Made by a program: the position numbers and the translations under genes. This document shows, in pieces, positions 46,545 through 48,516 of a DNA stretch of 54,460 bases (positions within the stretch are counted from its first letter, which is position 1; the number at the start of each line of letters is the position of its first letter). The notes beneath the pieces were generated by a model. The model was not told the origin of the DNA, did no database searches, and was given only the letters and a program-made list of their open reading frames with translations. Source of the DNA: Mycobacterium phage prophiGD12-2; the sequence record MW584207.1; one strand, 5' to 3'.

Positions 46545-46578
46545 CACAGCGCGTTGTCGGCCCCTGGGCGTGCCGCTA
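46545..46578. repeat. 34-bp imperfect direct repeat, copy L (CACAGCGCGTTGTCGGCCCCTGGGCGTGCCGCTA)
   Basis: About 29 of 34 positions match 48483-48516. Flanks the lipoprotein-protease cassette. Confidence 0.55.
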
Positions 46579-47097
46579 CTTAGGTGACTGGTTTTTCGAT
46601 CTGTCGGAAATGATCTTCATGGCCTTCTGTAGCTTCTCCTGCCCTGGCGCGAAGGCGCCAGATTCAACCGATTTGAGGTCAGCGGAATTCAGATGAATGC
46701 TGTTCCACAAGTGGTACCAGTCAGCCTTGACGCTTTTGTTGCCCACAAACAGTATGTAGTCGCCGGGTGTAATCGGCTTGCTTCCGGTACCTAGAACCTC
46801 GCATTTTTCGGTGCCCTCTTGCGCAATAGTGAATGTACTTGGAGGTTCGCCTTTGAGCGCCTTGATCACCGTAGCTGGAAACAACGTCCGTGGATCACTG
46901 GGACTCTCAACTGTGCCAGTCGAGTTGCCGACAGACGCCACGACAACGCTCTGGGACCTCTCGGTCAGGAGCCCGACATCGGTGGTATCGAACGCTGGGT
47001 CTTGAACAAGTTGGCACGTCTCAGATTTGTCTCCCGAGCATCCGGTCAGGCCCAGGACTAGGGCACTGACCGCCAGGAATGCGCGCATTCTCATCAT
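46576..47097 (-). CDS. Lipoprotein (signal peptide with lipobox LTGC)
   Basis: MMRMRAFLAVSALVLGLTGC. SD AGGAAG upstream of ATG 47097/47094. The longest ORF runs to 47226. Confidence 0.6.
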   Translation of the reverse strand: MMRMRAFLAVSALVLGLTGCSGDKSETCQLVQDPAFDTTDVGLLTERSQSVVVASVGNSTGTVESPSDPRTLFPATVIKALKGEPPSTFTIAQEGTEKCEVLGTGSKPITPGDYILFVGNKSVKADWYHLWNSIHLNSADLKSVESGAFAPGQEKLQKAMKIISDRSKNQSPK

Positions 47098-47114
47098 GAT
47101 CTTCCTGTCGCCCT

Positions 47115-48341
47115 TCATTTCTGGTGTATCTGCTTGACGATAGCCTTGTCGAGGGCTGTCGGGCTGATGGGACGTATCGTGTGGTCGGACAGTTCGTGTG
47201 CGCGCTGCATGATGGTTCCTGCACACCCATGGATAAGGCCTAGTGCGTGCCCGATTTCATGCGTGATTGTCTCCTGTATCCGCTCGGCGGAGGCGTTCTC
47301 TTTCTCGAAGAGCCAGGTGTTGATATAGATAATGCCGTTCTGCCAGTCCGTGCGCCCGTATGGCCCGAAATCGGGGTCATGGCTCTCCACGACTTTCACG
47401 TCGGCATTGAACGGGCCTTTTCGGTACCAGGCTGGCGTGAAGTAGGAGATGTCGACTCCGAGGCCTTTCCACTCATCGACGGCCTTACTTACCATGTCGG
47501 GCCATTTGGTTGCATTTTCTACACGCATCTGTGGGCCGTTCAGCGTGTTGCCGACCATGGTGAACCAGTCGATATTCGATATTGGCTGCCCGGCACTCAG
47601 CTCAGCCTGCGACTGCTGGCAGATGTTCTTGTCGGTGCCGTTGTCCATGCGGTACTTCTCGTCCGGAACCTCACTAGTGTCGTCAAAGTCATCAGTGTGG
47701 AGGTCGTCTTCGGAGCTGTTCTGGCCCGCCTTCTGGCCCGGCTGCGTCGTCACCGTTGGCTGCTGTGTCGGCGCCTGCGTCTGCGTAGGGGCTTGAGTCG
47801 GCTGTTGCTGTTGCGGCTGCTGCCCCTGCTGCTGCGGCGACTGGTGTTGCGGCGCTTGGTAATCCGGGTTCGGCTTACCGGGGCCTTGGGTGTATCCGGG
47901 GTTGGTCTGGTAGTCCGGGATCTGTGTGCCATGGGCGGGCTGTTGCGCCTGCTGGGGCTGCTGCCCTCCCTGTTGACCCGGAACCTGTTGTGGTGCTTGC
48001 GGATTGCCGCTGTTGTAGATGCTAATTCCGGAGTTCTGATCTAGCGGCGGCTGGTTGTTGCCGCCCTGGTAGTCGGGCATGGAGCTGGGCATCTGCGGCG
48101 GTTGGAACTGAGAGCCGCCACCGTCTGTCATTCCCCCGGTCGGCGCAGGCGGCCCCGTAGGGTCTGCCGCCACCGTCGCGACGGCCGAGAACCCGCTACC
48201 CGGTGTGGTGTAGTCGCTGGCCACCTTCATGCCACCGGCAACAAGAGCAGCCAGGGCCGTCACTGCGAGCGCACGACGCAAACCGGGTGTTGTAGGCGAT
48301 TTGCCCTTCATATCCACTATGTGGCCCTCCGAATGAACCAT
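47115..48341 (-). CDS. Secreted metzincin-type Zn metalloprotease with a Gln/Pro-rich low-complexity linker
   Basis: HEIGHALGLIHG (HEXXHXXGXXH). N-terminal signal or TM segment. About 110-aa Q/P-rich linker. An alternative ATG start lies at 48311. Confidence 0.7.
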   Translation of the reverse strand: MVHSEGHIVDMKGKSPTTPGLRRALAVTALAALVAGGMKVASDYTTPGSGFSAVATVAADPTGPPAPTGGMTDGGGSQFQPPQMPSSMPDYQGGNNQPPLDQNSGISIYNSGNPQAPQQVPGQQGGQQPQQAQQPAHGTQIPDYQTNPGYTQGPGKPNPDYQAPQHQSPQQQGQQPQQQQPTQAPTQTQAPTQQPTVTTQPGQKAGQNSSEDDLHTDDFDDTSEVPDEKYRMDNGTDKNICQQSQAELSAGQPISNIDWFTMVGNTLNGPQMRVENATKWPDMVSKAVDEWKGLGVDISYFTPAWYRKGPFNADVKVVESHDPDFGPYGRTDWQNGIIYINTWLFEKENASAERIQETITHEIGHALGLIHGCAGTIMQRAHELSDHTIRPISPTALDKAIVKQIHQK

Positions 48342-48482
48342 GCCCTATACATGAGCAAACTGTTCGAAGCTTTCCACAGCTGCGGCCAGCTGTCTACCTC
48401 GTCGGTAGACCCTTGCTTGCTGGACAAAAATGCAAACAGCCCTGGCTGCACTCACGCGGTAGAAGCTGACGGCGGGGCCGAG

Positions 48483-48516
48483 CACAGCGAGTTGTCGGCC
48501 CGTGGGCGTACAACTA
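48483..48516. repeat. 34-bp imperfect direct repeat, copy R (CACAGCGAGTTGTCGGCCCGTGGGCGTACAACTA)
   Basis: Matches 46545-46578. Confidence 0.55.

Follow-up and report, generated by a model that had tools for sequence, protein, structure and literature searches.

A metzincin and lipoprotein gene pair lies between two copies of a short spacer after the lysis genes of some cluster-MabD Mycobacterium abscessus prophages

The locus and its two cargo genes

The stretch of DNA analysed here (prophiGD12-2, record MW584207.1; 54,460 nt, hereafter the window) is a complete cluster-MabD Mycobacterium abscessus prophage. Directly after its lysis genes, two minus-strand genes and a non-coding region are enclosed by two copies of a short direct repeat. 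The features of the locus are as follows.

43630-46176: lysis block, with lysin A (43630-44931), lysin B (to 45938) and holin (45946-46176)
46173-46538, plus strand: gp88-like gene from the open reading frame (ORF) list, last gene of the lysis block and left flank of the insertion site
46538-46578, no strand: left spacer copy, with hairpin arms GGCCG(G)ACA and TGTCGGCC, a variable loop, then the core TTGTCGGCCCCTGGGCGT
46576-47097 (or 46576-47094), minus strand: predicted lipoprotein gene, 172-173 amino acids (aa), MRMRAFLAVSALVLGLTGC, lipobox LTGC
47115-48341, minus strand: predicted metzincin ORF, secreted or membrane-anchored, assigned from weak Pfam hits, PDB hits, motif and model
48342-48475, minus strand: 134-nt non-coding region upstream of the metzincin gene, cassette-specific, presumed promoter
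48476-48516, no strand: right spacer copy, with a near-constant "cassette-type" loop (GCCGAGCACA[A/G]CGAG) and the complete gp89 5' motif
48493-48514, plus strand: gp89 5' motif, TGTCGG-N7-GCGTA[C/G]AAC, at -28 to -7 relative to the ATG
48521-48940, plus strand: gp89-like gene, 139 aa, phrog_14375 (function unknown), right flank of the insertion site

The product of the left flanking gene (phrog_1397, function unknown) shares 97-99% amino acid identity with gene 88 of prophiGD05-1 and gene 32 of phiGD17-1, and we refer to the two flanking genes as gp88 and gp89. The cargo is lower in GC than its surroundings, at 54.4% for the lipoprotein gene and 56.0% for the protease domain, compared with 62.5% over the whole window and 63.9% in the lysis block. 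The only integrase identified in the prophage, a tyrosine integrase (263-1585), has its own 76-bp tRNA-derived att repeat at the prophage ends, and a polymorphic toxin system with a WXG100/type VII N-terminus lies separately at 52099-53901.

The larger cargo gene probably starts at GTG 48317 or ATG 48311, downstream of GGAGGG. Its product begins with a signal or transmembrane anchor and a P/Q-rich linker (aa ~11-208), followed by a C-terminal catalytic domain (aa ~220-408) with the zinc-binding motif HEIGHALGLIH and a Met-turn (HEIGHALGLIH...GTIM); none of 12 homologues departs from it at the H, E, H, G, H and M positions. Pfam metzincin hits were weak and below gathering scores, and the PDB sequence hits were all metzincins. 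An AF2 model built from the 12-sequence alignment (pLDDT 84) retrieved MMP-12, snapalysin, MMP-8 and karilysin as the top Foldseek hits in the PDB, as well as myroilysin and archaemetzincin, with a probability of 1.0 and TM scores of 0.5-0.73. The cargo protein is thus a predicted metzincin-fold protease, a prediction that the model confirms. Homologues were found with the full-length query, while the C-terminal domain alone retrieved none. More than 100 Mycobacteroides protein clusters share the N-module of this protein (aa ~11-161, 60-88% identity), and their C-terminal Pfam domains differ, including Amidase_2, PLA2, GH19, DUF2599, matrixin and others; a conserved N-module with variable C-terminal domains across paralogues is the pattern by which polymorphic effectors are recognized.

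A signal peptide and a lipobox, with cleavage between MRMRAFLAVSALVLGLTG and the cysteine, can be read directly from the smaller ORF. The preliminary description of this DNA had called a lipoprotein gene and a secreted metzincin gene, and both calls stand on the signal peptide, the LTGC lipobox, the HExxHxxGxxH motif with its Met-turn and the match of the model to metzincins. The lipoprotein has no Pfam hit and is absent from the phage and plasmid collections. Its gene is always found immediately downstream of a metzincin gene (four homologue clusters, each adjoining a metzincin homologue; four contexts), which makes the product a candidate for the inhibitor of, or immunity protein against, that metzincin. 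In three other Mycobacteroides contexts the similarity of the pair is confined to the two coding sequences, and neither flanking direct repeats nor spacer-like sequences were found around the pairs in M. chelonae, M. abscessus subsp. massiliense and the third context.

The 134-nt region upstream of the metzincin gene accompanies the cassette in all carriers and is not common to the homologous pairs elsewhere; apart from the repeat itself it has no match in the phage collection. It contains a terminator-like hairpin with a T-run (48449-48436, minus strand), although such terminator-like sites were no commoner than in shuffled sequences, and a search of the cassette for a sigma-70-type promoter consensus found none. 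A donor of the cassette or of this region was not found in the phage or plasmid collections or in metagenomes, so that the original event cannot be reconstructed.

The flanking repeat and its two parts

A repeat search over the window identified a direct repeat of 41 nt between 46538-46578 and 48476-48516, with 83% identity (34/41) and a spacing of 1938. The preliminary description had spoken of near-identical 34-mers, which is fair for a 27-nt core (25/27) and generous for the last seven nucleotides, as the full 34-mers (46545-46578 and 48483-48516) match at 29/34 positions. A degenerate 27-mer with at most three mismatches occurs exactly twice in the 54,460 nt, and not at all in 100 dinucleotide shuffles. 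Past the repeat there was no significant similarity on either side, since local alignment scores were equalled by 81/500 and 83/500 shuffles; an extension into the flanks, in the form of a gp88 remnant 5' of the right copy, was rejected on this ground. The repeat is therefore real, significant and sharply bounded, and no such pair is expected by chance. Elsewhere in the window there is a single near-match, at 51557; it falls within a minus-strand coding sequence and is a chance match, so that the repeat is not a dispersed motif.

Between the copies lie only the two ORFs and the 134 nt of non-coding sequence, which bears out the earlier remark that the repeats bracket exactly the two minus-strand genes and their promoter, apart from the promoter itself, which is presumed. 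Its two finer observations on the ends of the repeat also agree with the coordinates. The left copy begins with the last base of the gp88 stop codon and finishes with that of the lipoprotein ORF (CTA, 46576-46578); the right copy stops at 48516, just before the gp89 ATG at 48521. The CTA match at the 3' end of the repeat may be a coincidence. In other carriers the left copy reads GCGTAC followed by CGCTA and the tail of the right copy is often ACAACTGACCC, and because these tails differ, the secure duplication extends over only ~36 nt (GGCCG...GCGTAC; left copy 46538-46573).

The repeat is the duplicated gp88-gp89 spacer, the 5' part of which is a potential hairpin after the lysis operon and the 3' part the gp89 5' motif. 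The motif, TGTCGG-N7-GCGTA[C/G]AAC-N6-ATG (the portion before the N6 also written TGTCGG-N7-GCGTACAAC), is found once per locus at a fixed distance from the start of gp89 homologues in several prophage clusters and in unrelated contexts, from which it follows that the right copy represents the native DNA upstream of gp89, of which the left copy is a truncated version. The motif is whole in the right copy alone; the left copy keeps its first two-thirds and lacks the AAC-N6-ATG end. The hairpin stands straight after the gp88 stop codon and is small and GC-rich, with a stem of 6-8 bp whose arms are conserved around a hypervariable loop (95% of stem cells paired in 10 variants). Nonetheless, no compensatory pair was found in a covariation analysis, and folding z-scores against shuffles ranged from +1.4 to -2.7, the left copy of the window (z = +1.4) folding no better than shuffled sequence. 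An intrinsic (Rho-independent) terminator is a GC-rich stem-loop followed by a U-tract; no U-tract or T-run follows the stem, and a terminator scan called no terminator at either copy. The hairpin may mark the end of the lysis transcript, and the gp89 motif may serve as a promoter, operator or leader. The earlier suggestion of shared regulatory or terminator elements thus survives in one half: the 3' two-thirds of the repeat is a conserved gp89 5' motif, complete in the right copy only, but the terminator half is not borne out by a hairpin that has no U-tract, is not called by the scan and shows no covariation.

An exact-core scan of 185,579 representative genomes (596 Gb) returned 48 matches, all in unrelated taxa and none in Mycobacteroides, which is about the chance number for 17 specified bases and makes the scan uninformative. 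The 20-base core had no match in metagenomes, the repeat has no kinship to the prophage att core, and no known RNA family was detected in 45500-49500 at E ≤ 1.

Occupied and unoccupied junctions and the origin of the two-copy arrangement

The preliminary description had proposed that related prophages be searched for an empty site with a single copy of the repeat after the lysis genes, and such sites are present; the result that it had named as a refutation, cassette-free relatives with no repeat at the junction, did not turn up. Eight cassette-free loci (prophiGD05-1, phiGD17-1 and the IMG/VR loci L058, L073-L076 and L078), representing six distinct haplotypes, all read gp88-TAG, a 44-bp spacer with a single repeat copy, and the gp89 ATG. 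Seven distinct haplotypes (the window, L068-L071, L079 and L080) carry the 1.94-kb cassette between two copies, with identical placement of both junctions; L113-L117 are of the L069 type and were not counted as extra haplotypes. Within IMG/VR the cassette occurs at the gp88-gp89 junction only. The description of the cassette as a discrete moron module is supported, since gp88 and gp89 are adjacent, with one copy between them, in cassette-free relatives. Its proposed acquisition by recombination at the repeat is one of several possible origins, and the homologous pair occurs elsewhere without the repeat.

Comparison of the two kinds of site showed that the parts of the repeat have different affiliations. 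Left-copy loops fall into four types (A-D), three of which also occur at cassette-free sites; the right-copy loops hardly vary and accompany the cassette. At the other end, the 3' tail of the left copy (ACCGCTA) is peculiar to the cassette and that of the right copy is associated with gp89. The cassette is 95-98% identical in DNA sequence among carriers and adjoins three groups of gp89 alleles with only 68-78% identity between groups, and the same alleles are also found at cassette-free sites. In the window and in L079 the right copy contains patches that resemble the left copy of the same locus, which gene conversion would be expected to produce. The left flank is similarly diverged (95.5-98% identity), which indicates that the cassette is old in the MabD lineage and that some or all of the cassette-free sites could be secondary deletions. 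An attempt to count independent gains and losses from the loop types was abandoned, as gp88 is a fine-scale mosaic (54 variable sites in 366 nt) and loop types common to occupied and empty sites consequently give no count of independent insertions or excisions. The same junction also receives other cargo without any duplication: a 311-bp spacer with a 75-aa ORF in L072, 3.4 kb in L139, and further cargo in L136-L138; L072 and L139 have no hairpin at the junction.

The reading that we favour, with a probability of about 0.72, is that the 1.9-kb two-gene block is a real insertion and that the repeat is the scar of one insertion as well as a substrate for homologous exchange. The repeat is regarded as a scar and not as the end of a mobile element because the gene pair is found elsewhere without it and other cargo occupies the junction without it. 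The usual arrangement in this lineage is gp88, the 44-bp spacer (hairpin, then gp89 motif) and gp89. In some MabD members a foreign 1.94-kb block, comprising the lipoprotein gene, the metzincin gene and the 134 nt, would have been inserted into the spacer in reverse orientation, leaving ~36 nt of the spacer on both sides, so that the left copy would keep the hairpin after gp88 and the right copy would restore the whole gp89 upstream region, with neither flanking gene disturbed. The repeats and the conserved flanks could thereafter have served as short homologies by which the cassette was shuffled among MabD backbones through general or phage-encoded homologous recombination and gene conversion, and precise deletion via the repeats could regenerate the single-copy site.

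The comparisons show the repeat, the single-copy sites, the polymorphism of the site, the hybrid composition of the copies and what the cargo is; how the duplication first arose, whether individual changes of state were gains or losses, and what the hairpin and motif do, we infer. The duplication could stem from an illegitimate or template-switch insertion that re-primed ~36 nt upstream, from insertion between the copies of an earlier tandem duplication, or from Campbell-type entry of a circle carrying one copy. A one-sided, homology-facilitated import from a MabC-like donor with gp89 as the anchor was considered and rejected, as the MabC neighbours do not have the hairpin half of the right copy. 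It tells against the favoured reading that a duplication of 36-41 bp is unusually long for illegitimate insertion. The block encodes only the protease and the lipoprotein and thus no transposase or recombinase, and no inverted repeat pairs its ends; the duplication also exceeds the 2-15 bp typical of insertion sequences, which moreover have copies elsewhere, as the cassette in IMG/VR does not. On the favoured reading the repeats are neither the ends of a mobile element nor a dispersed regulatory repeat.

It is conceivable, though in our estimate unlikely, that the two-copy cassette state is the older one in MabD prophages and that all single-copy spacers are precise deletions, leaving no true empty sites. 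The divergence of the cassette does equal that of its flank, deletion between 36-nt repeats would give exactly the single-copy spacers seen, and an arrangement of a minus-strand effector beside a plus-strand gp89 is widespread, cluster MabC having a member of the N-module effector family placed divergently next to its gp89 homologue. Yet the hairpin arm and loop of the right copy are sensible only after a gp88 stop codon, which places the order gp88-spacer-gp89 before the cassette, and the MabC neighbours lack the hairpin half of the element. This account bears on which way later changes went, and the repeat could be an insertion scar under it as well.

We hold it to be just as improbable that the 1.94-kb block is a non-autonomous site-specific cassette, whose ~20-bp invariant core would act as an att-like site at which a recombinase supplied in trans excises the block as a circle with one copy and integrates it into empty spacers, in the manner of integron cassettes or cis-mobilisable elements. 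The copies are hybrid exactly as attL and attR would be, with backbone-type sequence 5' of the core on the left and 3' of it on the right and cassette-type sequence 3' of it on the left and 5' on the right; occupied and cassette-free sites have backbone loop types in common, and the cassette also adjoins three very different gp89 alleles. Hybrid repeats with a common core, and a single core at unoccupied sites, are nevertheless equally expected from homologous recombination, and the conversion patches in the loops of the window and L079, together with the mosaicism of gp88, are of the kind that general homologous recombination produces. No recombinase lies inside the block, and the sole identified integrase uses an unrelated att. 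The element is found at this junction only (the two window copies, chance-level matches in the genome scan and none in metagenomes), while homologous pairs elsewhere, and other cargo entering the junction, do without it. The invariance of the core is in part an ascertainment effect of the exact-match scan, as the left copy of L070 and the spacer of L078 vary in it.

Quite improbable is a third account, in which the two copies are independently needed regulatory elements, the left ending transcription of the convergent lysis operon and lipoprotein gene and the right acting as promoter or operator of gp89, and resemble each other through common function. The gp89 motif in the right copy, at its fixed distance from the ATG across clusters, the conserved and largely paired stem arms around a hypervariable loop, and the position of the left copy between convergent genes, a place suited to a bidirectional terminator, are all in line with it. 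Against this, the left copy duplicates two-thirds of the motif with no gene to serve, the right copy has a hairpin arm and loop without an upstream gene to terminate (the outer stem pair being broken in L069 and L071), and L072 and L139 dispense with the hairpin altogether. The hairpin has neither a called terminator nor a U-tract, its folding energy is unremarkable and covariation is absent, and the single copy in cassette-free relatives speaks for duplication and not convergence. Very improbable, finally, is a gp88-gp89 spacer that acts as a dedicated docking site for cargo, with a cassette that brings its own copy of the site and, excised as a circle, enters empty MabD prophages by crossing over in the ~20-bp core by means of a phage or host recombinase in trans, which if true would amount to an integron-like or cis-mobilisable cargo-exchange system for temperate mycobacteriophages.

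Relation to known accessory insertions and consequences for M. abscessus

The closest precedent for the MabD insertion is a 1.35-kb insertion in phage LRRHood, between 29-bp repeats that are single-copy in Cali (PMC3029335), and the MabD insertion is in this sense of an ordinary kind already described in mycobacteriophages. Both are accessory insertions of a kilobase or more between short direct repeats (29 bp in one, 36-41 bp in the other) that relatives carry once between otherwise adjacent genes and that occur nowhere else, and both allow the same two readings, in which the DNA was either gained through recombination inside the repeat or lost from between its copies. They differ in phage cluster and host and in their cargo, which is a heterologous repressor in LRRHood and a secreted protease with a lipoprotein in MabD. 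The MabD repeat, moreover, lies between genes and is separable into a hairpin and the conserved 5' motif of the gene that follows, and the many carriers and non-carriers available reveal hybrid copies and conversion patches.

Morons, as defined by Juhala and Hendrix, are DNA between genes that are adjacent in related phages, typically with their own promoter and terminator (PMC3029335). The MabD cassette is moron-like in that its accessory genes lie between otherwise adjacent genes, in opposite orientation and with lower GC, have their own upstream non-coding region, and are placed in a cargo-rich region after the lysis genes. No promoter or terminator of its own was recognised by sequence, and flanking duplications are not part of the definition of classic morons. 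Morons are also expected to be expressed from the repressed prophage; the published RNA-seq (PMC8092301) deals with other prophages. With elements bounded by attL and attR (prophages, cis-mobilisable elements and integron cassettes) it shares hybrid repeats of tens of bp that are single-copy when unoccupied, but it has no integrase of its own or dedicated to it, its repeat is unrelated to the phage att, and its exchange resembles general homologous recombination.

As regards the cargo, the cassette resembles the polymorphic toxin-immunity cassettes of M. abscessus prophages (Dedrick et al. 2021, PMC8092301; Amarh et al. 2023, PMC9934374). Both lie near the right prophage end on the strand opposite to the lytic genes, are exchanged between prophage clusters and consist of two genes, one for an effector that joins a conserved N-module to an exchangeable C-terminal domain and, after it, one for a small partner; lipoproteins are among the immunity proteins of the polymorphic toxin-immunity system. 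The described toxin systems have WXG100/type VII N-termini, whereas the MabD protein has a Sec-type signal or transmembrane anchor, a P/Q-rich linker and a predicted metzincin C-terminal domain.

The repeat itself introduces no new principle, an equivalent case having been published in 2011 (PMC3029335). The locus is a clean and well-sampled case of accessory-gene gain, loss and shuffling in temperate mycobacteriophages: the 44-bp junction after the lysis genes exists in at least four or five states (empty, with the metzincin cassette, with a small ORF, with 3.4-kb cargo, or with other cargo), and the duplicated short spacer marks one such event, in which both neighbouring genes stay intact. 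For the biology of M. abscessus the cargo, carried by some MabD prophages only, outweighs the repeat. Its metzincin belongs to a family in which many Mycobacteroides proteins combine a common export and linker module with interchangeable enzymatic heads, and together with the lipoprotein it is a candidate lysogenic-conversion or competition factor.

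A direct repeat at the two ends of the cassette

Near-identical 34-mers had been described on either side of a lipoprotein and metzincin gene pair, and a repeat search of the window found the repeat in that place, as a 41-nt direct repeat (46538-46578 versus 48476-48516, spacing 1938 nt) with 83% identity (34/41 positions); the originally described 34-mers agree at 29/34 positions and the core at 25/27. Even with up to three mismatches permitted, a search for the degenerate core gave just these two hits in the window, and none in 100 dinucleotide shuffles. Beyond the copies, local alignment over 135-150 nt gave no similarity above chance (81/500 and 83/500 shuffles reached an equal score), and the repeat is therefore sharply bounded. 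Comparison with other carriers gives a secure duplicated unit of ~36 nt (GGCCG...GCGTAC), while the terminal 5 nt of the 41-mer differ between genomes and their match here may be due to chance. The features of the locus and its surroundings are as follows.

Features of the prophage and of the cassette junction
1-76 and 54385-54460: terminal direct repeat (75/76 identical)
263-1585: tyrosine integrase
ending at 46538: lysis block (lysin A, lysin B, holin and the gp88-like gene)
46173-46538, plus strand: gp88, last gene of the lysis block
46538-46578: left copy, from the last base of the gp88 stop codon; its final 3 bases are the stop codon of the next ORF
46576-47094, minus strand: lipoprotein ORF
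48317 (GTG) or 48311 (ATG), minus strand: probable start of the metzincin ORF, behind GGAGGG
48476-48516: right copy, ending 4 nt short of the gp89 ATG
48521, plus strand: start of gp89
48962-50167, minus strand: Fic
50401-51165, minus strand: DUF4352/DUF2510 gene
51215-51643 and 51655-52089, minus strand: tandem paralogous immunity-like genes (142 and 144 aa)
52099-53901, minus strand: WXG-type polymorphic toxin (600 aa)
53907-54218, minus strand: WXG100 gene

The terminal repeats include a tRNA-gene 3′ end with T-arm, acceptor stem and CCA; they are attL and attR, and the window is exactly one complete prophage. In the databases it is closest to M. abscessus prophages of cluster MabD, namely prophiGD05-1 and phiGD17-1/prophiGD17-1, and the gp88 protein has an exact match on contig JADWWX010000001.1, the GD14 genome accession according to Dedrick et al. 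2021 (PMC8092301). Neither that paper nor its 2023 follow-up (PMC9934374) mentions the cassette or the repeat. The genes at 51215-54218, in which the immunity-like pair lies downstream of the toxin and the WXG100 gene, are the right-end toxin-immunity cargo typical of M. abscessus prophages. Between Fic and the DUF4352/DUF2510 gene sits a perfect 21-bp inverted repeat (50343-50363/50379-50399, 15-nt loop), which would form a strong predicted hairpin.

The two cargo genes

The metzincin ORF has 408 codons and encodes a signal/TM anchor and a P/Q-rich linker. Pfam gave only sub-threshold metzincin hits around HEIGHALGLIH, all PDB sequence hits of the protease were metzincins, and in full-length homologues, some annotated as matrixin, HExxHxxGxxH and the Met-turn are invariant. 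An AlphaFold model (12 sequences, pLDDT 84) matched MMP-12, snapalysin, MMP-8, karilysin, myroilysin and archaemetzincin. The N-terminal ~150-200 residues (aa ~11-208; 47700-48311) are common to more than 100 Mycobacteroides protein clusters at 60-88% identity (P0009-P0124), whose C-terminal domains include Amidase_2, phospholipase A2, GH19, DUF2599, PF22322, PF15533 and matrixin. A shared N-module with varied C-termini looks like a Sec-type polymorphic secreted-effector family, one that differs from the polymorphic toxins of WXG100 type known from these prophages.

The lipoprotein ORF has a textbook lipobox (LTGC) and received no family assignment in Pfam. Its homologues form four clusters only, each directly downstream of a metzincin homologue, and it is reasonable to regard it as a candidate cognate inhibitor or immunity protein, comparable to the snapalysin/sermetstatin pair, snapalysin being one of the fold matches of the protease model. 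The lipoprotein and protease-domain DNA has a GC content of 54-56%, against 62.5% for the prophage.

The gp88-gp89 spacer with and without the cassette

In prophiGD05-1 (genes 88/89) and phiGD17-1 (genes 32/33) the gap between gp88 and gp89 is 44 nt with one copy of the element inside. A locus survey that began with the exact core and went on to protein-anchored scans of IMG/VR yielded three classes: the cassette with two copies in seven distinct haplotypes (the window, L068, L069, L070, L071, L079 and L080, with five more NCBI/Logan loci, L113-L117, of the L069 type); the 44-nt single-copy spacer; and L072 alone, with a different insertion. The preliminary description had predicted a single copy after the lysis cassette in cassette-free relatives, and this was seen at eight loci representing six distinct haplotypes (L001=L058, L002, L073, L074=L075, L076 and L078); cassette-free relatives without the 34-mer at the junction did not turn up among the surveyed loci. 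Its main interpretation, of a discrete inserted moron bounded by the repeat, is thus supported by these single-copy sites.

The spacer consists of a 5′ inverted repeat and a 3′ motif that overlaps the 3′ stem arm. The inverted repeat (GGCCG.../...CGGCC) surrounds a loop of 13-15 nt, hypervariable from one genome to the next. Its six outer stem pairs are paired in 95% of cells over ten variants, in which there are no compensatory changes, and hence no covariation support, because the 3′ arm is invariant. The hairpin has an unremarkable folding energy (z +1.4 to -2.7) and no U-tract, it was not called in a terminator scan, and no Rfam family matched the region. The 3′ part reads TGTCGG-N7-GCGTA[C/G]AAC, with the gp89 ATG 6 nt further on (motif at 48493-48514 in the window, 3811-3832 in L003 and 5973-5994 in L077-L100). 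It occurs once per locus, exactly at -28..-7 from the ATG of gp89 homologues in several M. abscessus prophage clusters and contexts; in other prophage contexts these homologues are 49-70% identical, and some are the first gene past a divergent gene or a canonical terminator. We thus regard the motif as a 5′ element specific to gp89 (a phrog_14375 gene of unknown function), likely, judging by its position, a candidate promoter, operator or leader, with a misfit to sigma-70 spacing. The whole motif is present in the right copy only; the left copy breaks off after GCGT(A/G)C.

Comparison of carriers and cassette-free loci revealed that both copies are hybrids. The left copy has a constant, cassette-specific 3′ tail (ACCGCTA...) and a 5′ (loop) part of four types, of which B, C and D also occur in single-copy spacers; six cassette-free loci, for example, have exactly the left loop of carrier L070. 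The right copy has an almost constant 5′ part (GCCGAGCACAACGAG) that moves with the cassette and a 3′ tail that moves with gp89. The cassette, 95-98% identical among carriers, adjoins three gp89 allele groups with a mutual identity of just 68-78%, and the same alleles are found at cassette-free sites. In the window and L079 the right copy has patches like the left copy of its own genome, as would be expected from gene conversion. These data show that exchanges were resolved within or beside the repeat, and do not demonstrate a dedicated mechanism.

The neighboring gp88 (46173-46538 and homologues) is a fine-scale mosaic, with 54 variable sites in 366 nt among 16 near-identical phages and incompatible site patterns a few nucleotides apart, also within a few nucleotides of the spacer, which indicates that recombination tracts in the region are very short. 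With gp88 so finely mosaic, short-tract homologous exchange is pervasive, and independent gains and losses could not be counted. The cassette has diverged as much as its left flank (95.5-98%), so it has long been resident in the lineage. Within gp88 there is also an imperfect 33-nt tandem duplication (46308-46339/46341-46372; ACCGAGCAGCGCGA..., peptide TEQRE.F/H..A twice). The early region of the prophage encodes a PD-(D/E)XK nuclease (weak hit), an RtcB RNA ligase (E 4e-113) and a Prim-Pol (10300-11385, 11882-13132 and 13353-14108, respectively), and the nuclease could be part of phage recombination machinery with a bearing on exchange through short homologies.

Origin of the duplication and the nature of the insertion

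The right copy keeps a hairpin arm and a loop that are intelligible only as DNA after the gp88 stop codon; we therefore infer that the gp88-spacer-gp89 order came first and that the cassette entered the spacer later. Three routes to the duplication are compatible with the data: an illegitimate or template-switch insertion that would have re-primed ~36 nt upstream, insertion of the cassette between spacer copies already duplicated in tandem, or Campbell-type integration of a circle that would already have carried one copy. No cassette donor was found in our searches. Prophages of cluster MabC have an N-module effector gene divergent to the adjoining gp89 homologue (prophiGD44-1 genes 34/35, prophiGD43A-3 31/32, prophiGD25-1 31/33 and phiGD57-1 65/67 (L003, 2407-4258)), and the effector (-)/gp89 (+) synteny seen at the occupied MabD site therefore recurs elsewhere. 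For this reason a MabC-like phage was considered as the source, with gp89 as homology anchor for the import, and rejected: MabC lacks the hairpin half, whose presence in the right copy would go unexplained.

Taken together, the sequence evidence argues against the cassette being a mobile element. It is confined to the gp88-gp89 junction in IMG/VR. A homologous gene pair (lipoprotein 70-80% identical) occurs in three other places, namely an M. chelonae chromosomal context, an M. abscessus subsp. massiliense island adjoining a polymorphic toxin, and a contig where it lies beside an integrase fragment; DNA similarity extends from just inside the protease gene to the lipoprotein stop codon, and a flanking direct repeat or spacer-like sequence is absent at all three. 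The cassette is without the recombinase expected of an att-flanked site-specific element, and the repeat has no relationship to the prophage att. A transposon failed on a coding content of two proteins only and on the lack of terminal inverted repeats at the cassette ends in the repeat search of the window.

Other cargo is found at the same junction: in L072 (5690-6000) the spacer is 311 nt long and a minus-strand ORF of 75 aa takes the place of the element's 5′ half, L139 (2426-5843) carries a 3.4 kb plus-strand cargo pair, including a 490-aa protein, between gp88 and the gp89 motif, and L136-L138 have other, unrelated minus-strand genes straight after gp88. No flanking duplication surrounds any of these. 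Cargo in general is thus accepted behind the lysis block, and only the cassette insertion has the duplication.

In position and in base composition the cassette qualifies as a moron. Among published cases the nearest is that of mycobacteriophage LRRHood (PMC3029335), a 1.35-kb insertion with 29-bp direct repeats that are single-copy in Cali, and the two features that define it, bracketing repeats and one copy in relatives, are both found at the present locus. The main value of the finding, modest overall, lies in the cargo and in a well-sampled junction polymorphism.
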